Below, one piece after another: positions 1,256-15,325 of a stretch of 15,914 nucleotides of DNA. Position 1 is the first letter of the stretch; each line of letters begins with the position of its first letter. Source of the stretch: an uncultured archaeon (lineage in GTDB: Archaea; Asgardarchaeota; Heimdallarchaeia; Heimdallarchaeales; Heimdallarchaeaceae); assembly GCA_964534625.1 (NCBI GenBank), contig CAZHRF010000014.1, forward strand, positions 32,809 to 48,722, written 5' to 3'. A model generated the notes under the pieces. It was given only the letters and a program-made list of their open reading frames with translations, did not search any database and was not told the origin of the DNA. A program made the position numbers and the translations under genes.

Positions 1256-1651
1256 TTACTCAATTTTTTTCTGGACTTCGTTAATTTTATCAAGCAACAA
1301 TCTAAGATTTGCTTCATTTCTTTCAAGTTTTGTAAATAGATCTCGCCATATGGGGGATCGTTGTAAAATAACTTGTTGTTCAGCATTATATGTTCCTTTC
1401 TTTAAATCATAATAGCCAACGATTGTTGATACTATGAAATATCCAACAATGAATATTAAAGCAAAAATCCAATAACTTTTAATCTCTGCTGGTATAAAAT
1501 ATAATTCTTCGACTAGTAATTTATATACAATAATAGTAAAGTTAATTATGGATAAACCTAGAGCAAACCAGTTACTATGCCCTCTAACCATGTATTGCTT
1601 GTATCTACCTATTTTATCAATTAATATTCTCAGTTTGTATTTAACTTCCAT
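1256..1651 (-). CDS. Hypothetical small membrane protein (2 TM plus C-terminal coiled coil)
   Basis: 131-aa ORF. Hydrophobic segments WFALGLSIINFTIIVY and YWIFALIFIVGYFIVSTIVG, followed by heptad-like LFTKLERNEANLRLLLDKINEVQKKIE. Confidence 0.75.
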   Translation of the reverse strand: MEVKYKLRILIDKIGRYKQYMVRGHSNWFALGLSIINFTIIVYKLLVEELYFIPAEIKSYWIFALIFIVGYFIVSTIVGYYDLKKGTYNAEQQVILQRSPIWRDLFTKLERNEANLRLLLDKINEVQKKIE

Positions 1652-1777: not shown

Positions 1778-3247
1778 TTACTTATCTTCTTCATTAAAAG
1801 AAGATTTATACCAATCTATAACATTTTGAACGCCTCTAGCGAGTTCTCCAGTTTCATCTTGTCTACTTGTCAGATTTTTATCTACATATATATCATCTAG
1901 AGCGCTTAAAGGATCTTCTGATACAGATGATATTGAAAGTTTATTGACGACATCTTTCAATCTCTCGATAGGTTGTACCAGGTAATTAGCGACCAATACT
2001 CCAACAATAATTGATGTTACTGCTGTAATTACAATAATTAGGATTATTTGGTTTCTTGAAGCTATTTGAGTCTCAGACATCCTTTCTTGTAAAGGTTCCA
2101 ATGCGTCCAATGCCTCACTTTCGGGGACAATGATGAGACTAATGTATTGACCTAAACCTACTGGTTGATACGCCAAATAATATCTCTCATTATTCTTTTC
2201 GAATTGAGTTACACCTATTGCTCCACTCGTAATTTCACTGATTTGACTACTTGATAAAGCAGATGAATTATCATCATTTATTTCTATTTGATCAATGGTC
2301 TTGAAGTCAACTTCTCCTAATTCGGGTATGCTATCTTTATGAGCAATCACAAGACTTGAAGAAGTTATTAGAGCAGCATAACCTGTCTCAAGAACTTCTA
2401 CATTTAATATTTCATCAACAATATCCTGAATAGTGATATCACCACAAATTACTCCTAGGAAATCGCCATTTGGTTTTGTAACTACTCTCCCTATTGTAAT
2501 CAAAGGCACACCATCTATCTCGTCAAAATACGGTTCAGTAAAGACTATTTCACCTTCGCCTTCTAAAACTTCTTCATACCATTCTTCATCGACAGCGACA
2601 TAGGGATCATCTATTCTGTCTTGAAGTGTTCCACCCACTATACTACCTGGATAGTTTACAAAAAGTGTCGTATCAGCTACAGGAATCGCCGCGTATAACC
2701 ATCTAAATTCAGGCATATTCAAATGAATGTATTGGAATATATAATCCATATTGGCTACAGTTTGAATTGTCTGATTTAGTTCTTCGCTTTGCACTTGATA
2801 ATTTAAGTGGGTTGAGCCATCAAAGTAATAGCTTGCATAATTCCATGAAACATTTATTTGGTAACTAGGGTCATAAACTAGATCAGCTGGTACTAAGGAA
2901 GGCTCTGGATCAAATTCTTCGAAGAAATAATCGTAATATGCTTGACGGTAGTCATAACGATTATCTTCGGAAAATAGCATTTCCATTTCATTAGCCATCA
3001 TCTTGACCATCGATTCAGCATTTTTGAACTTTTGTTGAATAATTTCAGCGTTCCCCTCTGATGTAAGAAGTATGTTTCTTTGAATTTGAGTCTGTAACGC
3101 ATCAGTACTTTCTGTTATGGTGGTATCACTTACATTACCAACAAATGCAAAAGAGATCAACCCAATAGCAATCATAGCCAATAGGGTGAATAAAATAAAA
3201 CTTCCAATGATACTTGATTTTATACTTCGTTTTTTAATTACTTGCAT
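1778..3247 (-). CDS. Membrane receptor TM-dCache_1-TM-HAMP with no cytoplasmic output domain
   Basis: N-terminal TM. Cache motifs EEWY..FTEPYFD..LITIGR..GVICGDI and TGYAALI..VIAH..YLAYQPV. Second TM (IILIIVITAVTSIIVGVLVA), then HAMP (QPIERLKDVVNKL...DETGELARGVQNVI) and a stop about 11 aa later. ATG 3247 has a GAGGTG SD just upstream. The ORF track uses GTG 3256. Confidence 0.88.
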   Translation of the reverse strand: MQVIKKRSIKSSIIGSFILFTLLAMIAIGLISFAFVGNVSDTTITESTDALQTQIQRNILLTSEGNAEIIQQKFKNAESMVKMMANEMEMLFSEDNRYDYRQAYYDYFFEEFDPEPSLVPADLVYDPSYQINVSWNYASYYFDGSTHLNYQVQSEELNQTIQTVANMDYIFQYIHLNMPEFRWLYAAIPVADTTLFVNYPGSIVGGTLQDRIDDPYVAVDEEWYEEVLEGEGEIVFTEPYFDEIDGVPLITIGRVVTKPNGDFLGVICGDITIQDIVDEILNVEVLETGYAALITSSSLVIAHKDSIPELGEVDFKTIDQIEINDDNSSALSSSQISEITSGAIGVTQFEKNNERYYLAYQPVGLGQYISLIIVPESEALDALEPLQERMSETQIASRNQIILIIVITAVTSIIVGVLVANYLVQPIERLKDVVNKLSISSVSEDPLSALDDIYVDKNLTSRQDETGELARGVQNVIDWYKSSFNEEDK

Positions 3248-3258
3248 TTTTTCCACCT

Positions 3259-6021
3259 CTAATATTCGTTCTCAAAGTCAACACCTTCAACATCGACTTG
3301 GGATAGCATCTCCCTAACTTGATGAAAAGCATTTTGTATTGCTCTGTGGGCACTACCTGGTTGGTGTATGGGGATATATTTTCCTCTTGGTGCTTCTTTG
3401 GTAAGTCGAATAATTTTATTTTCAATTCTTCGCAGACCTCTACCAACACCTATAACTATTAAGTTAATGTTAAGAAAACTCTCCGATATTAGTTTCTGAA
3501 TAGATTTATCTTTGATACCTAATAAACTACTGAGTAAGCCTTGAGATCGTTGGGTTATGTTGTAGCGTCTACTTGAGTTGTCTTCACCATCAGTAAGAGC
3601 TATAATCCACCGTTGCTCATTACCTGTTCTATTTGCTAAGATATTGAAAGCATCACCTAACGCATCATAAAATGATGTTGCACCGTGCGGATTACGTAAG
3701 CGATTAATTTTATTGGTAATTTTGTCTCTATTTTCTTCAACAGGGGTTAAATCTAAAACAACACGACTATATGTATCAAAGGTGATTATACCCACTTCAT
3801 CTTGTGGATTAATTTGGGTATTGAAAACAGATAAAGCTCCTTCTACAGCGGCATCAATTCTTTTTCCTTGCATAGAGCCACTATAGTCGATAACAAAGAA
3901 TACTAATTTTTTATCAAAACTTCTCCGTTTCAATTCGTTATACATCGATTCGTAAAGTCTTACTTTTTTGATATCAGATCTAGCTTTAAACACAGCAACC
4001 AAATTTGAGAGTGATTGCTTAACTATGTTAACATTACGGATATCTTTTCCTATGGCTAGAGATTGTTCTAGGAATTTTTCTGCTTCATCATAATTTTTGA
4101 TATTTAGATAATATACACCAATATTGAGTTTAGATATAGCTATACCTCTCTCAAAACCTATATTTTCAGCTAAAGCTAAAGATTCAGAGAACATACGATA
4201 GGCAAATTTAACTTCTCCTTTTTGGAGATACATCAGACCTAGGTTGTTTTTATGAATAACGTTTCCTTGGCTGTTGTTAGATCTTTGATCGTATTGTAAC
4301 GCTAATTCAATATGATTCTTAGCTAATTGGAATTGACCTCTATCAAGCATTAACAAGCCTAAATTGTTGTATCTTGATGCCAATCCCACATAGTCATTCA
4401 TTTGTTTACCAATTTCAATCGATTCTAAATAGAGTTGTTCAGCTTTTTGAAACTCTTTTCTTGCCCTGTGCACATTAGCTAGATTGTTTTTTGTTAGAGC
4501 AATCCCACGTAAATTGTTAGTGGTTTTGAATAATTCTAAAGCTTTAACATAATTATTATAGGCCCTGTGTAGATCTCCGCGATAATAATCTTTGTTACCA
4601 TACCTAAGACTAGTTAAAAGGTTATCAAACGTGGAATGGAATACAGCTAATTCTCTGGGCAAAACATCTTTATCTTTAAAATCTCTTGATAAATCACCAT
4701 TTGCAACAAGATTAGCCATTTTTGTCACATCTTTTATAGGTTTAACAATGCGATTTGAATTTAAGAGTCCTAAGAAAATAATTAGTATAATCGCCACGAT
4801 TAAAATGACAAGCATAATAAGAACTTGTTGAACCGTTGCTCTAGATATAGTGTCTCTAATAGCCATGGCAGGGGCAATGATATTAGATTCTGGGACTACT
4901 AATGCCAAACTATATTTTGTTGTAGGCACAGGAGCATAACAGATGTACCAGTCAACACCATTTTTGGTATATTTCTCTGTACCTCGCTGTCCACTAGTCA
5001 TTTTATTCACTATGCTGTTAAATTGATTTAGCTCTTGGGTGTCATCACCTATTTCAAGAGCTGTTATTGTCTCAAATTCTTCACCTAAATCAGGGTGCAT
5101 GATAGTTGACCCTTCTTCGTCTACTAAGAAAGCATACCCATCATCCAATACTTGAATATTAAGAATCTCTTGTTTTAACGTGAGAATTGTGATATCAATA
5201 CCAACCATACCAATTAATGTACCATTGTTAAAATGAATAGGACGTCCCATACTTATTATGAGACCAATAGGGTCATAATATGGGGCTGTAAAAGCGGTTG
5301 AATCATCTTCTATATTAATGGCATTGATATAAAATTCTTCATCTTGAGGATTCCAGTCGTCATTAGGATCAACTGGATTATCTTCTTCGTCGAATTGTGT
5401 CCATTCCATTGAATCATACGGATAATTCCTGAACAATGAGTAATCGCCTTCAAAAGATGCATATATCCAAACAAAGTTGGGATTAGCTTCGTGCATGTTT
5501 TGAAACATATAATCTAAATTTGAAGAAACATTCAATAAATAGCCCAAATCAGAAGGCCAGGTAAATGGATCATTATTGGGAATCTTATTTCTTGGCATGT
5601 AGTATGCTGAAACATCAAAAGATATTTGGTCAGATTCATATAAGTCTACATATTCTTGACCTGGAATAGTACGACCCGTAGCATCAAATTCAGCATCTGC
5701 ATTCCACCAATAAGAATGATAATTTGAAATGTTTATTTCGCCATTAAATAGCGCTTCTGCATATATATCCAACATAGTAACTTGGTAAATAGATTGTAAG
5801 AACACTTGATTAATTCTTTCAGCTTGGTTTGTGACCGTACGGTTCAGTTGAGCTAACTCTTCTTCCAATAGTGCAAGGGAAGAATCATCAGCATTCTGAT
5901 CAGAAAGGATAATCAATCTTCGAGTAACAAGTATACCAAGAATAGCAGATGGAATTAATAAGAGCAGAAGCATAAATAATAATATTTTTCCTCTAATTGA
6001 CATCTTATTTGTAGAAAACAT
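3259..6021 (-). CDS. Membrane receptor TM-dCache_1-TM-HAMP-TPR array-vWA (MIDAS)
   Basis: TM1 at aa ~13-33. Cache motifs FTAPYYD..GMVGIDI and GYAFLVD..TIMHP..YAPVPTTKYSLALVVP. TM2 at ~4762-4824, then HAMP (KPIKDVTKMANLVANGDL..ELAVFHSTFDNL). About 5-6 TPRs of ~40 aa with NNLA/NNLG motifs. vWA with IDYSGS, GATSFYDAL and LTDGEDN. Alternative ATG at 6003. Confidence 0.92.
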   Translation of the reverse strand: MFSTNKMSIRGKILLFMLLLLLIPSAILGILVTRRLIILSDQNADDSSLALLEEELAQLNRTVTNQAERINQVFLQSIYQVTMLDIYAEALFNGEINISNYHSYWWNADAEFDATGRTIPGQEYVDLYESDQISFDVSAYYMPRNKIPNNDPFTWPSDLGYLLNVSSNLDYMFQNMHEANPNFVWIYASFEGDYSLFRNYPYDSMEWTQFDEEDNPVDPNDDWNPQDEEFYINAINIEDDSTAFTAPYYDPIGLIISMGRPIHFNNGTLIGMVGIDITILTLKQEILNIQVLDDGYAFLVDEEGSTIMHPDLGEEFETITALEIGDDTQELNQFNSIVNKMTSGQRGTEKYTKNGVDWYICYAPVPTTKYSLALVVPESNIIAPAMAIRDTISRATVQQVLIMLVILIVAIILIIFLGLLNSNRIVKPIKDVTKMANLVANGDLSRDFKDKDVLPRELAVFHSTFDNLLTSLRYGNKDYYRGDLHRAYNNYVKALELFKTTNNLRGIALTKNNLANVHRARKEFQKAEQLYLESIEIGKQMNDYVGLASRYNNLGLLMLDRGQFQLAKNHIELALQYDQRSNNSQGNVIHKNNLGLMYLQKGEVKFAYRMFSESLALAENIGFERGIAISKLNIGVYYLNIKNYDEAEKFLEQSLAIGKDIRNVNIVKQSLSNLVAVFKARSDIKKVRLYESMYNELKRRSFDKKLVFFVIDYSGSMQGKRIDAAVEGALSVFNTQINPQDEVGIITFDTYSRVVLDLTPVEENRDKITNKINRLRNPHGATSFYDALGDAFNILANRTGNEQRWIIALTDGEDNSSRRYNITQRSQGLLSSLLGIKDKSIQKLISESFLNINLIVIGVGRGLRRIENKIIRLTKEAPRGKYIPIHQPGSAHRAIQNAFHQVREMLSQVDVEGVDFENEY

Positions 6022-6074
6022 CTTCTATCATCTCGTAGAAAAAGTTGTAATCACATAAAATTTTGTTATACTCA

Positions 6075-6082
6075 TATATTAA
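6075..6082 (-). promoter_or_regulatory. Putative TATA box (TTAATATA) for the receptor operon
   Basis: AT-rich TATA-like octamer about 55 nt upstream of ATG 6021, in the divergent intergenic region. Confidence 0.35.
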
Positions 6083-6201
6083 TGTTGGTAAACGAGAATG
6101 AAGAATAATTAAGAATTTATCTTGATTGCCAAAGTAAAGTAAGTGACACAATCTATTCAAAAGATTTACATTTTGGAATAAAATCAAGTGTATCCCCCCA
6201 C

Positions 6202-6209
6202 TATAAATA
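6202..6209 (+). promoter_or_regulatory. Putative TATA box (TATAAATA) for the speA-RING operon
   Basis: TATA-like octamer about 70 nt upstream of the speA ATG at 6280. Confidence 0.4.
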
Positions 6210-6279
6210 GAAACAAATAAGTAAGACAATGTTTTATTCACCATAACGGGATAAACAGAATATCTTGTTGGTGTCAAAA

Positions 6280-8163
6280 ATGGAATGGACTTTAGATGAT
6301 TCACGTGTGGTTTATGGTGTGGCGAAAAACGATTTATATTTTTTAGATATTAACAACAAAGGCGATTTAGAATTAAATATCAATAATCACAAAATAACTT
6401 TTCAAGAAATTAATAGAATACTTGGAGAAAAAATAAAAGAAGAAGGTTACACAAGAGTTCCTTCCTACACTATGAGAATCCCCCAGCTAATAAAGAATCA
6501 AGTTAACAAATTATATGGTCTATTTCAAAATGAGATGCAAGCTTATGACTATAAAGGAAATTTTAGAGCTGTTTATCCCATAAAAGTAAATTCAATGAAA
6601 AGTGTTATTGAAACAATAAAAGATTCCCATCCATTATATCTTTTAGAAGCAGGAACGAAGACAGAGTTTATTTTGTTATTGAAATCTATAAAAAATGAAA
6701 AACATAGGACAATTTTTTGTAACGGGGTTAAAGACAAACAATACTTAAATATTGCAAAACAAGCTATGGAAGACGGGTATAAAGTTATTCTAAGTATTGA
6801 ATCAATTGCTGAACTACTTTTAGCATTAGACCTTTTACCTATAGATAAAATGCAAATAGCTTTACGAATAAAACCATATGCTACGGTAGGTGGTCGGTGG
6901 AAAACTTCATCGGGCAGATATAGCAAATTTGGTTTATCTATTTATGAATATCTTGAAATTCTTAAAATACTTGAACAGAAAAAATGTAAACATATTCTTG
7001 TTGCTACTCACTCACATGCTGGATCTCAAATTTCCGATTTAGAAGGAGTAAAAAATTATGCTTCATATATTGTTGATAGATATATTGAGTTACATAATAG
7101 AGGATTTACAAATCTATCTATCATTAATTTTGGGGGAGGCTTTCCAATCAACTATGATAATGATTTAAGCGAAAGTATTATTGAAAACTATGTGAGCATA
7201 CTAGTAAGAACTATTAAAGATAAATTGAAAAATGTGCATATCAAAGAACCAACCATAATGGTTGAAGCTGGGCGCTTTGTTACAGCTCAATCTGCTATTA
7301 TTATAGTCCAAACTCAAGATGTTTGGCCTATTTTTCCTCCTGCTACCGATGATTTGTATATTGAACATATGCACAAAATTGAACAAATTGATAACCCCAA
7401 AGAACTGTTAAAACTTTGGAAAGAAATCGAAGAAATAGATTGTGTGAAAGATGCTGAAAATATAGAAAAAACAGAAATGATTCGAGGAATAACCAAACAA
7501 CTTATCAGGAAAAAACTAGCCCAATTATTATCTAAATCCCAATACAACTTAATTGAGTTTGAAGAAGAATTACGCAAAATTAAACGGGAAATTTTTTCAG
7601 CTGATTATCTATTGTTAGGTAATTTTTCTGTTTTCAATAGCATTTGTGATCATGTACTTGTTAATCAATATTTCCCTTTGATGCCCATAACCAATCTCCA
7701 TAAACAGCCAGATACGATAGTTAGACTCATTGATTTAACTTGTGATAGCGATGGGGAAGTGTCCGTATATAAACAACAAAAAGGAGATAAGCTTCTTTTT
7801 ACATTTGATGGTTTCCCTTTAACAAGAACCAGTGACCGAGCTAGACTACTTAAAGGCATTCCTGTGGGGAGCCTTAATGAAATCGCGCATAGTTATGTCG
7901 CTATTCCCTTGGCTGGGGCATATCAAGATATCATTGAGTTTGATCATAATCTCATTGGGGACCTTGCTGACGTGGAAGTTAAAATTGGAGAGGATGGCCA
8001 GTGGTCAGTTGAATTGATTAATTTTGCTCAAAACATAGGTGAGCTCCTAACAGACGTTGGCTATAGTAAAGAGTATGCTGATAATCCCTATTTATCCTTA
8101 GATACGAGTCCAATAATTAACCGATTACGCTTAAACTTTAGGCATAATAAGGAGGAGAACTAA
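6280..8163 (+). CDS. speA: PLP-dependent (fold type III) biosynthetic arginine decarboxylase, bacterial SpeA type
   Basis: SpeA motifs in the expected order: YPIKVN (PLP Lys), LEAGTKTE, CNGVKD, SSGRYSKFGL, HSHAGSQI, NFGGGF, EAGRF, NFSVF..QYFPLMPI, DLTCDSDG, GAYQD..HNL. ATG 6280 (MEWT..) is preferred over TTG 6265. Confidence 0.88.
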   Translation: MEWTLDDSRVVYGVAKNDLYFLDINNKGDLELNINNHKITFQEINRILGEKIKEEGYTRVPSYTMRIPQLIKNQVNKLYGLFQNEMQAYDYKGNFRAVYPIKVNSMKSVIETIKDSHPLYLLEAGTKTEFILLLKSIKNEKHRTIFCNGVKDKQYLNIAKQAMEDGYKVILSIESIAELLLALDLLPIDKMQIALRIKPYATVGGRWKTSSGRYSKFGLSIYEYLEILKILEQKKCKHILVATHSHAGSQISDLEGVKNYASYIVDRYIELHNRGFTNLSIINFGGGFPINYDNDLSESIIENYVSILVRTIKDKLKNVHIKEPTIMVEAGRFVTAQSAIIIVQTQDVWPIFPPATDDLYIEHMHKIEQIDNPKELLKLWKEIEEIDCVKDAENIEKTEMIRGITKQLIRKKLAQLLSKSQYNLIEFEEELRKIKREIFSADYLLLGNFSVFNSICDHVLVNQYFPLMPITNLHKQPDTIVRLIDLTCDSDGEVSVYKQQKGDKLLFTFDGFPLTRTSDRARLLKGIPVGSLNEIAHSYVAIPLAGAYQDIIEFDHNLIGDLADVEVKIGEDGQWSVELINFAQNIGELLTDVGYSKEYADNPYLSLDTSPIINRLRLNFRHNKEEN

Positions 8164-8982
8164 TTGTGGAGAAAAAGAAAGAAAAGTAAAAATGATGATA
8201 AGCCAAATTATACAAGAGATAGAAAAGAGATTATTAATAGTTTAGAAAAAAATGGTTTTACTATAACAAAGATAATCGATTACGGGAGCAATTTTGGAAT
8301 AATAAGGGCGGAAAAAAGCGATTCGAGAATGCAAATAAGTACCTATGAAAAATTTGTTAATGATCATACAGAATTATATTTGGCGTTTGTTATACATACT
8401 GAACAGGTAAATAAAACAAATTTTAAACTGGTGCAACGAGAAGAAACTTCAGCTGATGCTGTGCCCAAGGCTTTTGATGATAGATTAGATATTATAAGTT
8501 TTGAAAGTCGAAATATAATAGATCAACTTCTACTTAACACCTCTAAAGGGGTAAAAGAAGGATTAAATAGTATTAAACCGCATCTAGAATATTTTACTCT
8601 TTCTGGTACTCAGATGGTGATAGAGTTGGGAGTGAAATATAACCTTACTACAGCCTTAGATGCTTTGAAATTCTTGTCCAATTTCCTAAATGTGATAAAA
8701 ACTCAATATAGCAAATTATTGGTCTTTTCTGGTGAAAAAAAATACATGTGTGTCTATTGCAGAAAAGAAATACCCCTTGAAGGAAAAACGTGCCCTCATT
8801 GTGGTAAAAAAGCCCCCATATGTGTTATCTGTAAAGTAGATCCTGAACCAGGGGAGGCAATAATACAATACGAGTGTTGTAACGCTTATGCACATTTAGA
8901 ACACGCTTTAAAATGGAAAGAAGTATCAGATATTTGTCCAAGTTGTAAAACTCGTGAGCCAAAGTTTAATAGGGTCGTATAA
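8164..8982 (+). CDS. Zinc-ribbon plus RING-finger-like protein (putative E3 ligase-like)
   Basis: C-terminal CVYC-x10-CPHC ribbon, followed by CVIC...CCNAYAHLEH..W..CPSC, a RING-H2-like pattern with the conserved Trp and Pro. The TTG start abuts the speA TAA, with a GGAGGAG SD at 8151-8157. Confidence 0.8.
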   Translation: MWRKRKKSKNDDKPNYTRDRKEIINSLEKNGFTITKIIDYGSNFGIIRAEKSDSRMQISTYEKFVNDHTELYLAFVIHTEQVNKTNFKLVQREETSADAVPKAFDDRLDIISFESRNIIDQLLLNTSKGVKEGLNSIKPHLEYFTLSGTQMVIELGVKYNLTTALDALKFLSNFLNVIKTQYSKLLVFSGEKKYMCVYCRKEIPLEGKTCPHCGKKAPICVICKVDPEPGEAIIQYECCNAYAHLEHALKWKEVSDICPSCKTREPKFNRVV

Positions 8983-11743: not shown

Positions 11744-12058
11744 ATGTCAATTGAAGGATTAAAGATCCCAGGCGAGATTCATACTGTTGAAGGTAAAAAA
11801 AAGGATAAAGAAATTATGTTATTTACTATTAGTACCTGTCAATGGTGTCGTAAGGGAAAGAAATGGTTACAAGATAATGACTATACGTATTACTATTGTG
11901 ATATAGATAAATTAGATTTTGAAGATAAAACTAAACTCAAACAAGAATTAAAAGAGAGATTCAAGTCTAGGGTGGCTTTTCCATTTATAGTGGTAGATAA
12001 AGAACTATTTAATGTAGGATACAATCCCGAAGAGTGGAAGCAAATAATTGAAAAGTAA
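11744..12058 (+). CDS. Glutaredoxin/NrdH-like redoxin
   Basis: LFTISTCQWCRKGK CxxC motif, cis-Pro motif AFPFIVV, and GYNPEEW. Confidence 0.9.
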   Translation: MSIEGLKIPGEIHTVEGKKKDKEIMLFTISTCQWCRKGKKWLQDNDYTYYYCDIDKLDFEDKTKLKQELKERFKSRVAFPFIVVDKELFNVGYNPEEWKQIIEK

Positions 12059-12076
12059 ATAAAGAGGTCTTATATA

Positions 12077-12433
12077 ATGTCTGATACCAATAAAACTTTT
12101 GATGATGTCAAGGAATATGTAACAAGAGTGGCAAAAACAAGAGGATGGAAATTACATCCTAATCATGATAACACATTAGATATGCTTATAGAAGGATTAA
12201 GAGATTATTTTAATGCGGTTGGTTATTATAATTGCCCATGCAGAGATTCAAATAGAGATAGGAAAAAGGATCGTGATATCATGTGCCCATGCGATTATGC
12301 AGAGCCAGATATTGAAGAATATGGGAGATGTTATTGCGCATTGTTTTTTGATCCTGACTTTGATTTCGACGAAAAAACGATAGGGATGATACCTGAAAGA
12401 AGACCAATTGAAAAAGAGGCAGGATTTGAATGA
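12077..12433 (+). CDS. Ferredoxin:thioredoxin reductase catalytic (beta) subunit family protein
   Basis: Diagnostic CPCR...CPC...CYC motifs (4Fe-4S ligands plus redox disulfide). GAGG SD upstream. Apparently co-transcribed with the glutaredoxin. Confidence 0.92.
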   Translation: MSDTNKTFDDVKEYVTRVAKTRGWKLHPNHDNTLDMLIEGLRDYFNAVGYYNCPCRDSNRDRKKDRDIMCPCDYAEPDIEEYGRCYCALFFDPDFDFDEKTIGMIPERRPIEKEAGFE

Positions 12434-13978: not shown

Positions 13979-15325
13979 GTGAATGAAAAAATACGCACTT
14001 TAATCAATTCTAGCTGTAAAATGACAATATCTACCAGTGGAGTAAAAAATCCTTCTATACAGAGGTTTAGCTATGTAAGAAAAAAGAAGAAATTATACAT
14101 AGCCAGCGTAGAAAATTCTAAAACTGCTCAACAAATCACATATTTTCCTCACGTTGAAATAATTATAGGCGGAGTTGAAACATATCTAAAGATAGAAGGA
14201 AGAGCCAGAGTAGTTAAAGATAATAAGGACGATAAAAAAGAAATTTTAAAAGATTTGAAGAATAAAGATCAATTAGAAGATCTAGGGATCTATTCTGTTG
14301 TATTAATCGAGATAATTCCAGTAAAAATTTATTTACCCAAAGAAGAAATCCTAGAAATATATGAAGAAAATACTCTCTCTTATATAAAGGAAGCACTCTT
14401 ATCTTTGCAATCTTCACTTAAACTTTTCTTGAAGAGTATAGGCTTACCTTTTTTATCTGCAAGTGGTCTCGCAGTTATAGTAGGAGCAAGTACAGCATAC
14501 TATGAAACAGGTTTTTTTAACTGGTATTTATTCATTTTAACATTATTGGGGATACTTCTGATTCACTCAGGCGTAGATTCAACTAATGACGTCTATGATC
14601 ATTTGAGTGGAACAGATGATATAAACAAACAAGTTACTCCTTTTTCCGCTGGAACTCAAGTGATTCAAGGGGGGCTTTATACAACATCACGGATGCTTAT
14701 TCAAGGATTAGTGTTATTTTTTTTAGGTGCAATCATTGGACTAATTATTAATTTCAGTATTCCAGGAAATACTGTTTTGTTTCTTGGAATAGGGGGTATT
14801 TTCCTAGGGTTCTTTTATGTTGCATTTCCCATTAAATATGCGTATAGAAGCTTGGGTGAAATAGGGTTGTTTCTAGGTTTTGGACCTTTAACTGTCTATG
14901 GAGCATATTATGTTCAGAATCATAGTTGGTCATTGCGCCCGTTATTACTTTCAGTTAATGTGGGACTACTAATCTATAGTACATTATTTATCAATGAATT
15001 CCCAGATGTGGAAGCAGATCTTTATGCAAAAAAGTATACCTGGGTAGTTAAGTTGGGAAAAAATAAAAGCAAGATTATTTATTCAATTGGAGTAGGGATA
15101 GTTTATCTGTTGCATGCAATATTTATAATTTTGAATTTTTTACCTGTCTTAGCTGTTTTTTGTTATCTTTCTCTCCCTATTGCATTAAAAGCAATGATTA
15201 TTACAATTAAGCATAGTGACAATTTTAAGATTATGCTGGGAGCACAAACATTGACTATTCTTACAATGATTGTGTACACCGCATTATTGTCTTTAATACT
15301 GATTATAAGCCGCCTTTTTGCGTAA
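13979..15325 (+). CDS. menA: MenA-like UbiA-family prenyltransferase with N-terminal pyridoxamine-5'-phosphate-oxidase-like split-barrel domain
   Basis: UbiA/MenA Asp-rich motifs NDVYDHLSGTD and NEFPDVEADLYAKKYT, plus YAYRSLGE, GFGPL and about 9 TM. The N-terminal ~125 aa (TISTS..P..LYIAS..S.TAQQI..PHVEI..IEGRARVV..LIEIIP) look like an FMN-binding split barrel. Confidence 0.82.
   Translation: MNEKIRTLINSSCKMTISTSGVKNPSIQRFSYVRKKKKLYIASVENSKTAQQITYFPHVEIIIGGVETYLKIEGRARVVKDNKDDKKEILKDLKNKDQLEDLGIYSVVLIEIIPVKIYLPKEEILEIYEENTLSYIKEALLSLQSSLKLFLKSIGLPFLSASGLAVIVGASTAYYETGFFNWYLFILTLLGILLIHSGVDSTNDVYDHLSGTDDINKQVTPFSAGTQVIQGGLYTTSRMLIQGLVLFFLGAIIGLIINFSIPGNTVLFLGIGGIFLGFFYVAFPIKYAYRSLGEIGLFLGFGPLTVYGAYYVQNHSWSLRPLLLSVNVGLLIYSTLFINEFPDVEADLYAKKYTWVVKLGKNKSKIIYSIGVGIVYLLHAIFIILNFLPVLAVFCYLSLPIALKAMIITIKHSDNFKIMLGAQTLTILTMIVYTALLSLILIISRLFA

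Follow-up and report, generated by a model that had tools for sequence, protein, structure and literature searches.

A linked pair of dCache_1-HAMP receptors in Asgard archaea, one with a TPR-vWA arm and one without an output domain

No extracellular sensor is commoner in prokaryotes than the Cache-HAMP receptor, and to our knowledge all characterised members of the class feed a kinase, a chemotaxis array, a nucleotide cyclase or a phosphatase. What is transmitted by two such receptors that end in none of these? The question is raised by A and B, two adjacent genes in a 15,914-nt stretch of a Heimdallarchaeaceae contig (GenBank CAZHRF010000014.1, positions 32,809 to 48,722; this whole stretch is called the window), which comes from an assembly of 3.37 Mb that is 89.8% complete. 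A preliminary description of the window had proposed a kinase-less signalling pair with an undescribed signalling logic. A and B belong to a real, ancient and undescribed receptor family: full-text literature searches and targeted look-ups returned no description of the architecture or of the module that surrounds it.

The best-supported reading overall, to which we give a probability of about 0.55, is a heteromeric, docking-based receptor. A and B would form two subunits of one transmembrane sensor, each exposing a dCache_1 ligand-binding domain outside the cell. Their parallel pairing would run along the N-terminal and membrane helices and continue into a HAMP four-helix bundle common to both. 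A alone would reach further into the cytoplasm, through a tetratricopeptide repeat (TPR) solenoid and a metal-dependent von Willebrand factor A (vWA) domain, and the output would be the regulated docking or release of putative partner proteins, not catalysis. B would be an ancient, obligate, output-less co-receptor and not a decayed gene. If true, a TPR-vWA docking arm combined with a required output-less sister would represent a new output logic in prokaryotic signalling, and the family bears on the origin of eukaryotic scaffold-based, heteromeric receptor signalling.

Domain architecture of the two proteins

Both open reading frames (ORFs) lie on the minus strand, A at 3259-6021 and B at 1778-3256 when its GTG extension is included (Table 1). 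The proteins are paralogous, with 29% identity over a 450-residue alignment (E 6e-45), and, as described earlier, A is the longer receptor and B ends after HAMP, with a tail of about 20 residues beyond helix AS2. Each is a dCache_1 protein, carrying a PF02743 match over the gathering score and two flanking membrane helices; the match reaches 71.6 bits at residues 210-373 of A and 70.7 bits in B, against a cut-off of 45. Hydropathy places the membrane helices of B at residues 21-39 and 404-422, and both proteins bear basic residues N-terminally and after the second helix. This arrangement of two membrane helices with basic flanks directs the Cache domains outward and therefore positions HAMP, TPR and vWA in the cytoplasm. 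Here A is matched by three TPR_12 stretches between about residues 480 and 690 (TPR_12, 81.3 bits), followed by a vWA match at residues 707-813 (VWA_2, 66.3 bits).

The AlphaFold2 model of A (mean predicted local distance difference test score, pLDDT, 85.6) shows a long N-terminal helix spanning residues 9-92, a double-PDC fold, a continuous second membrane/AS1 helix at 378-440 and AS2 at 456-480, leading into eleven TPR helices at 484-700 and a Rossmann-like vWA at 705-908. The HAMP region of this monomer model has low confidence, as expected for a dimer-dependent module. HAMP scores of the window proteins also lie under the PF00672 cut-off of 25 (A, 16.6 bits over residues 422-448; B, 15.4 bits), and the domain is accepted in both on family evidence. 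Specifically, PF00672 is matched by 49/53 B homologs at E<=0.01, residues P428 and AS2 E457 are invariant among 76 full-length A homologs, P426 and D464-E465-x-G467-x-L469 are invariant among 53 B homologs, and in the predicted A-B dimer the HAMP helices form a four-helix bundle.

The direct run of HAMP into the TPR array, as reported in the preliminary description, is found in A as the string FDNLLTSLRYGNKDYYRGD at residues 463-481, and the junction residues G475, N476 and G482 are invariant in the same 76 homologs. Equally invariant there are the five residues D712, S714, S716, T782 and D811 of the metal ion-dependent adhesion site (MIDAS), which had been called intact; with its D-x-S-x-S motif, distal Thr and distal Asp, the vWA of A reads as one with a functional-type MIDAS. 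No kinase, methyl-accepting chemotaxis protein (MCP), GGDEF/EAL, cyclase or PP2C domain is detected in A or B by Pfam and NCBIfam at E<=0.1, and the kinase-less character of the pair stands; PP2C or GAF domains are carried by more distant Cache-HAMP relatives (P0098, P0101). An output through protein docking is consistent with these data and appears quite likely.

At the gene boundary, the TAG stop of A is followed by AGGTGG, five A's and an ATG that lies 11 nt after the TAG. B most likely starts at this ATG (3247) rather than at the GTG (3256), because the Shine-Dalgarno-like AGGTGG sits 5 nt upstream and the product matches the 489-aa database form P0122. From their sequence the two genes are coupled in an operon-like manner. 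A 99-aa ORF at 6005-6304(-) that overlaps the start of A has no family match and a low-complexity look, and was treated as a shadow ORF.

Conservation and pairing of A and B

If B were a recent truncation, its relatives should carry a kinase or MCP tail, and such a tail is absent from all 79 B-family clusters (E<1e-50; some are partial sequences), which come from Heimdall/Hodarchaeales-, Thor-, Loki/Prometh- and Odin-labelled bins. Apart from eight clusters, the family consists of dCache_1 with or without HAMP only, full-length members measuring about 440-520 aa. The eight, which are the nearest to window B except for one 80%-identical cluster, end in a Zn-ribbon and HEAT-repeat tail (577-670 aa). 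In a quick IQ-TREE tree of the shared region, rooted with A paralogs and supported by Shimodaira-Hasegawa-like approximate likelihood ratios (SH-aLRT) only, the HEAT-tailed forms make up a single derived clade (support 96). Window B falls outside it, within a 23-member tail-less clade (support 89), and the deeper branches are all tail-less. On this tree the tail-less form, which is also the dominant one, is the ancestral state of B and not a recent truncation.

The HEAT-tailed forms (P0124-P0129, P0142, P0168, given as 642-670 aa; for example L076:293-2290 in G110) mark a clade in which both subunits bear protein-docking tails. The window ORF at 1256-1651(-) was considered as a detached HEAT tail of B and shows no similarity to one, and HEAT matches elsewhere in the genome (C2, C40) are generic. 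No fused longer forms of B were found, in a search that did not recover even the A family and is therefore weak; a locus search of genome contigs with the single protein returned one true relative. In G119, a 1117-aa open frame is reported for B, yet ORF calls give a separate B (493 aa) and decarboxylase (607 aa).

The pairing itself, on which the preliminary description had made its proposal depend, is conserved. Full-length homologs of A fall into about 95 clusters, almost all of them with an Asgard label, and A is present in 99/301 Asgard genomes searched, distributed by family as f1 1/28, f2 7/11, f5 5/21, f6 8/11, f11 61/76, f14 8/68, f17 5/19 and f27 3/7. Among the 44 genomes for which both places are listed, 40 have B immediately after A and in the same orientation, across at least six Asgard families. 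The four remaining cases are three contig ends and G245, where B lies with a decarboxylase gene away from the scored A gene. Adjacency and order are kept even between families in which the A proteins are no more than about 33-37% identical.

The module is nearly absent from the window's own family, where only G220 also carries it (81% identity to A). A lateral gain of the window copy from family f17 was considered and set aside: in a FastTree tree of 32 A proteins, the branching order of f1, f6 and f17 stays an unresolved trichotomy (support 0.03), although the three join f5 in one clade with good support. The complete Heimdall-group genome G241 (L056, G241:C1:1728000-1748000) carries two A-B pairs. 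The first adjoins a decarboxylase gene and is 45% identical to A; the second (37% identity, 891 + 544 aa) stands beside neither a decarboxylase nor a propeller gene. At least two subtypes thus exist within the A family.

Three further arrangements bear on whether A and B act together. First, in four f14 genomes of one Asgard genus (L073:7754-9945 in G049, L079, L080, L081), both genes have lost the Cache domain and are still paired. A' (574-577 aa) consists of two membrane helices, HAMP, TPR and vWA, with HAMP at 33.6 bits in a related cluster, and B' (154-155 aa), placed directly after it, consists of two membrane helices and a B-type HAMP only; a propeller protein of 605-616 aa follows. For a 154-aa membrane-HAMP protein such as B', little role is conceivable except pairing with another protein of that kind.

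Second, a eukaryotic gene model (P0102, EukProt, 1414 aa) joins B and A in a single chain. Its first half is B-like, with membrane helix, Cache, membrane helix and a HAMP with long connector and NDEIGQLA (E 5e-5 to B), and its second half is A-like, with membrane helix, Cache, TPR and vWA (26% identity over A 507-906, E 3e-33). The halves are separated by a low-complexity linker of about 200 residues and the third membrane helix. Neither a membrane helix nor a HAMP separates the second Cache from the TPR in this gene model, so that either its topology is ambiguous or the model is incomplete. Third, a contig of a giant-virus metagenome-assembled genome (L090:5560-9927, IMG/VR GVMAG-M-3300023179-27) carries a B-like gene of 503 aa with an A-like gene of 883 aa directly after it, the latter on a long branch with the second A subtype (f5 G241 second copy, f2 G015) in a FastTree tree. 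The preliminary description had called the arrangement a signalling logic for an archaeon; it recurs in at least six Asgard families, and the eukaryotic fusion and the viral pair extend the family beyond archaea.

Structure prediction of A(1-480) with B points in the same direction. The predicted complex has an interface score (ipSAE, interaction prediction score from aligned errors) of 0.79 (0.78, 0.79 and 0.80 in single runs), the best of three controls scoring 0.00; the mark for this score is reached by 58/80 solved complexes and 2/110 mismatched pairs, an approximate calibration as own alignments were used here. Partner pLDDT is 82, and at least 80% of contacts are common to the runs. The predicted interface extends along the N-helices, both pairs of membrane helices and HAMP, corresponding to the canonical parallel dimer of solved Cache/HAMP receptors. 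Along its axis, A places E72 (66/76 homologs) and D65 (61/76), while B places K73 (52/53) and K or Q at position 65 (42/53). At family level, this modelled charge complementarity favours hetero- over homo-pairing. An A-B heterodimer is on these grounds likely, and the co-receptor suggestion of the preliminary description gains in-silico support from the mini pair, the fusion, the predicted complex and the charges; the dominant-negative action proposed alongside it is less probable.

That action belongs to a different arrangement, in which A forms a homodimer with two TPR-vWA arms and B sets its sensitivity, either through non-productive heterodimers (dominant-negative or gain control) or through ligand-buffering homodimers. 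HAMP receptors are normally homodimers, B retains a well-conserved ligand pocket of its own, the heterodimer model would fit an inhibitory heterodimer equally well, and in G245 a B-decarboxylase pair stands far from the scored A gene. Such a modulator role is nevertheless unlikely: operon coupling is near-universal and 1:1, B coming immediately after A; a 154-aa B' persists next to an A' that has no sensor, and buffering of ligand is impossible there; the eukaryotic protein holds B and A in one covalent chain; and the charges at the predicted axis positions are complementary rather than identical.

Ligand pocket and the adjoining decarboxylase

What might such an A-B receptor sense? The dCache_1AA motif is Y121-x4-R126-x-W128-Y129 ... 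Y144 ... D173 in PctA numbering, where the Arg binds the carboxylate of the ligand and the last Tyr and the Asp bind its amino group (Gumerov et al. 2022, PMC8915833). Aligned to Mlp24 (6IOP), the pocket of A reads W223..E228-E-F230-Y231, Y248, D276, with Glu in place of R126 and Phe in place of W128, and the pocket of B reads Y..E-E-W-Y, again with Glu (E221 in the 489-aa numbering) in place of R126. The equivalents of Y144 and D173 are kept and invariant in both families, the Asp being D276 in A and D270 in B. At the R126 position, B homologs have E or D in 47/53, and A homologs (n=76) have E in 32, R in 19, F in 9, Y in 7 and Q in 6. By these residues A and B are not dCache_1AA members and retain the amino-group half of the pocket. 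An acidic pocket with amino-group binders plausibly fits an amine or another cation as ligand. The acidic residue at the R126 position hints at a likeness to amine sensors, which is suggestive and no more; Cerna-Vargas et al. (2023, PMC10589655) report dCache_1AM amine sensors among archaea in Halobacteriota only.

The gene next to the pair may lead in the same chemical direction, and the earlier reading was incomplete in leaving out this conserved link. Divergently from A lies a gene for a SpeA-like decarboxylase. Its scores, 352 bits for NF003763 (cut-off 369) and 323 for TIGR01273 (cut-off 624), are both under the equivalog cut-offs, and aligned to 3NZP it keeps the AVYPIKVN Lys and the HxGSQ, GGG, EAGR, CDSDGE and GAYQ motifs. 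It is likely an active fold-III decarboxylase, with arginine as putative substrate. A pyruvoyl-dependent arginine decarboxylase is encoded elsewhere in the genome (C19:17649-18155(-), locus L074; PF01862, 51 bits), and the SpeA-like gene is therefore an additional enzyme in this genome.

Linkage was assessed in 20 wide loci fetched irrespective of their neighbours, with ORFs clustered, or 21 counting the window. A SpeA-like gene adjoins the pair in 17/21, running co-directionally after B in f11, f6 and f2, and divergently upstream of A in f5 and the window. Across the 301 genomes, 82 have A and the decarboxylase, 17 A only, 17 the decarboxylase only and 185 neither; of the 82 with both, 66 have the decarboxylase gene next to the pair, and most of the others are split over short contigs. 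In the closest relative, G220, the gene follows B co-directionally, and in the window it is inverted on the other side of A; the linkage therefore survived a rearrangement. A third component, F2, is a soluble protein of 436-624 aa with a beta-propeller and a Zn-ribbon/winged-helix-like part, present in 14/21 wide loci and in 6/7 further f14/f27 loci.

The pair belongs to a conserved Asgard module that includes the SpeA-like decarboxylase in most lineages and often the propeller/Zn-ribbon protein. As signal, a cationic amine or a compound related to arginine, for example agmatine or polyamines, would be likeliest, and the receptor would then tune that pathway or report on it. That the ligand is an amine, or that the decarboxylase is controlled, is a tentative proposal that stands somewhat short of even odds. 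The accessory arginine decarboxylase link does provide a concrete physiological hypothesis, namely amine or polyamine sensing. A more far-reaching version is a long shot: an obligate heterodimeric class predating eukaryotes, common to Asgard archaea, some protists (fused) and giant viruses, whose TPR-vWA arm would dock the SpeA-like decarboxylase upon binding of an extracellular amine, possibly through a D-P-Y-[MLF] tail, and so control polyamine or agmatine synthesis by membrane sequestration. If true, docking of the decarboxylase would represent enzyme control via membrane sequestration instead of phosphorylation or second messengers.

The same neighbourhood bears on whether A and B are instead two independent homodimeric receptors, derived from an old tandem duplication, with B signalling through a separate HAMP-reading partner and the decarboxylase neighbourhood reflecting hitch-hiking. 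The identity of only 29%, the differing pocket residues, and the incomplete distribution of both the propeller protein and the decarboxylase fit this arrangement. It is rendered very improbable by the adjacency and order kept across families at about 33-37% A identity, by the mini pair, the fusion and the viral pair, and by a decarboxylase gene that stays adjacent in two orientations and after a rearrangement between close relatives.

Several points weigh against the heteromeric, docking-based reading and its proposed ligand. The complex score may mirror the likeness of A and B to solved homodimeric dCache/HAMP receptors and, being for A-B only, does not discriminate hetero- from homo-pairing. 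In A and B of the window itself, the charges complement each other only weakly (A N65 and Q72; B G65, Q72 and K73). Moreover, 19/76 A homologs keep Arg at the R126 position, and the ligand class may vary accordingly. Families f14 and f27, which account for 11 of the 17 A-only genomes, keep A-B (with F2) without a SpeA-like gene, and the decarboxylase therefore cannot be a universal target. F2 was not found in the window's genome (89.8% complete) by tblastn with five queries or by a 19-sequence profile. Finally, the co-occurrence counts overstate the support, since related genomes are not independent, and represent a pattern rather than a test.

Several features of the decarboxylase genes stand beside this argument. 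A D-P-Y-[MLFIV] tail motif is present in 15/17 cluster-linked SpeA-like enzymes (loci L057-L072 and the window); the tail of the window enzyme (8060-8163, +) reads D-N-P-Y-L-S, just past the region that aligns to solved SpeA structures. The D-P-Y tail may serve as a docking peptide. A 272-aa ORF (8164-8982(+)) begins immediately behind the stop codon of the decarboxylase gene, and its C-terminus contains a Zn-ribbon and a RING-H2-like Cys/His cluster (weak zf-RING_2, E 0.008); no homolog of this gene stands beside the module in the other loci examined. In another genome of the window's family, two tandem SpeA-like genes occur without a Cache pair (L078:5643-10402, G026), the first (874 aa) continuing at its C-terminus into a KaiC/RecA-like ATPase segment (PF06745, E 8e-12).

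Relation to known proteins and coordinates

The closest comparison is with bacterial dCache_1-HAMP receptors such as Vibrio Mlp24/Mlp37 and Pseudomonas PctA/B/C, and with the Methanosarcina Cache histidine kinase mmHK1S, which share the sensor fold, the N-in topology, the two membrane helices and HAMP. The best Protein Data Bank (PDB) sequence matches of the A Cache region are Mlp24 (6IOP), CACHD1 and PctA, and bacterial receptors of this class also give the best fold matches for the ectodomain. These dCache_1-HAMP receptors end in MCP, kinase, cyclase or PP2C domains and act as homodimers, whereas the output of A is TPR-vWA, A comes with the output-less paralog B, and the motif Arg is replaced by Glu. 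A Foldseek search with the full A model gives part-wise matches only, to dCache chemoreceptor ectodomains, alpha2delta, LGN/Pins and the KLC1 TPR.

Like A, alpha2delta/CACHD1 combine dCache_1 with a vWA of MIDAS type in a single membrane protein. CACHD1 is the second-best PDB sequence match of the A Cache region (E 5e-11) and alpha2delta-1 also matches, whole-model Foldseek matches to alpha2delta having a template-modelling score (TM) of about 0.26. In alpha2delta/CACHD1 the vWA is inserted inside Cache, everything is extracellular, and HAMP and TPR are absent (PMC8915833), whereas the vWA of A is cytoplasmic and C-terminal. The only significant PDB sequence match of the A vWA is the vWA of CLCA1, not that of alpha2delta. 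A common origin of the Cache-vWA combination is accordingly unsupported.

The TPR part of the A model aligns with LGN/Pins/GPSM2 and kinesin light chain TPR at TMt 0.5-0.6, which suggests that the TPR groove of A binds an extended peptide. The resemblance is one of fold only, at about 20% identity, and those proteins are soluble eukaryotic adaptors, not receptor outputs.

Heteromeric receptors with one signalling subunit are familiar from GABA-B GB1/GB2 in animals and from RetS-GacS type hetero-oligomers in bacteria. They resemble the proposed logic in having paralogous ligand-binding subunits and one output, and differ in their unrelated folds and outputs; we know of no such arrangement among Cache-HAMP receptors. 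BatA/BatB (Bat/MoxR-associated) are membrane vWA-TPR proteins without an enzymatic domain. They lack Cache and HAMP, have the reversed domain order, and come with a MoxR AAA+ ATPase in the operon, which the window does not contain.

The Bat proteins and alpha2delta/CACHD1 also lend shape to a further alternative, in which the pair is a membrane anchor or assembly scaffold and not a transducer: the TPR-vWA arm would tether a cytoplasmic complex (for example the decarboxylase, part of a coat or of the cytoskeleton, or an assembly of MoxR/Bat type), and the Cache domains would be structural or adhesive ectodomains. Both vWA and TPR are well known as modules for assembly and adhesion, proteins with a membrane anchor, vWA and TPR occur in bacterial Bat/MoxR operons, eukaryotic alpha2delta/CACHD1 use Cache and vWA as channel-associated ectodomains, and the sensor-less A'/B' pair does without any Cache domain. 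This alternative is improbable, given that HAMP, a dedicated signal-conversion module, is strictly conserved in both subunits even of the mini pair, that the invariant Tyr and Asp of the Cache pocket argue for ligand binding, and that no MoxR-type ATPase lies within the window.

Table 1. Features of the A-B locus and its divergent neighbour, in window coordinates
Feature	Position	Strand	Description	Basis
Gene A	3259..6021	-	920 aa, TM1-dCache_1-TM2-HAMP-TPR-vWA receptor subunit (TM, transmembrane helix)	ORF, Pfam, AlphaFold2 model, homologs
A TM1	5929..5985	-	residues 13-31; preceded by basic N-terminus, placing the N-terminus inside	hydropathy, sequence
A dCache_1	4837..5904	-	extracellular sensor, residues ~40-395	Pfam, PDB sequence matches, alignment column counts
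A TM2	4768..4824	-	residues 400-418	hydropathy; unbroken helix 378-440 in model
A HAMP	4582..4758	-	residues ~422-480, into G475-N476..G482 junction	weak PF00672 match, invariant P428/E457, predicted dimer contacts 425-472
A TPR	3922..4572	-	11 helices, residues 484-700, LGN/KLC-like	TPR_12 and related Pfam, model helices, Foldseek
A vWA	3298..3909	-	cytoplasmic, residues 705-908, MIDAS D712/S714/S716/T782/D811	VWA_2/VWA Pfam; invariance in 76 sequences
AGGTGG	3253..3258	-	Shine-Dalgarno-like site between A TAG stop and B ATG (5 nt)	sequence read
Gene B	1778..3247	-	489 aa, TM1-dCache_1-TM2-HAMP, without output domain	ORF, Pfam, 79 homolog clusters, tree
B HAMP	1799..1987	-	long connector, invariant D464-E465-x-G467-x-L469 (P0122 numbering), then short acidic tail	alignment, PF00672 at family level
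A/decarboxylase intergenic region	6022..6264	.	243 nt, AT-rich, divergent; presumed shared promoter region	sequence, gene order
SpeA-like decarboxylase	6265..8163	+	putative pyridoxal phosphate (PLP)-dependent arginine decarboxylase, 632 aa from TTG, in-frame ATG at 6280	NF003763, motifs, synteny

Two further stretches of the window are described by Pfam matches only. At 11744-12433(+), a glutaredoxin-like gene lies beside a gene for a ferredoxin-thioredoxin reductase beta chain, and at 13979-15325(+) a PNPOx-like domain is fused to a UbiA-type prenyltransferase.

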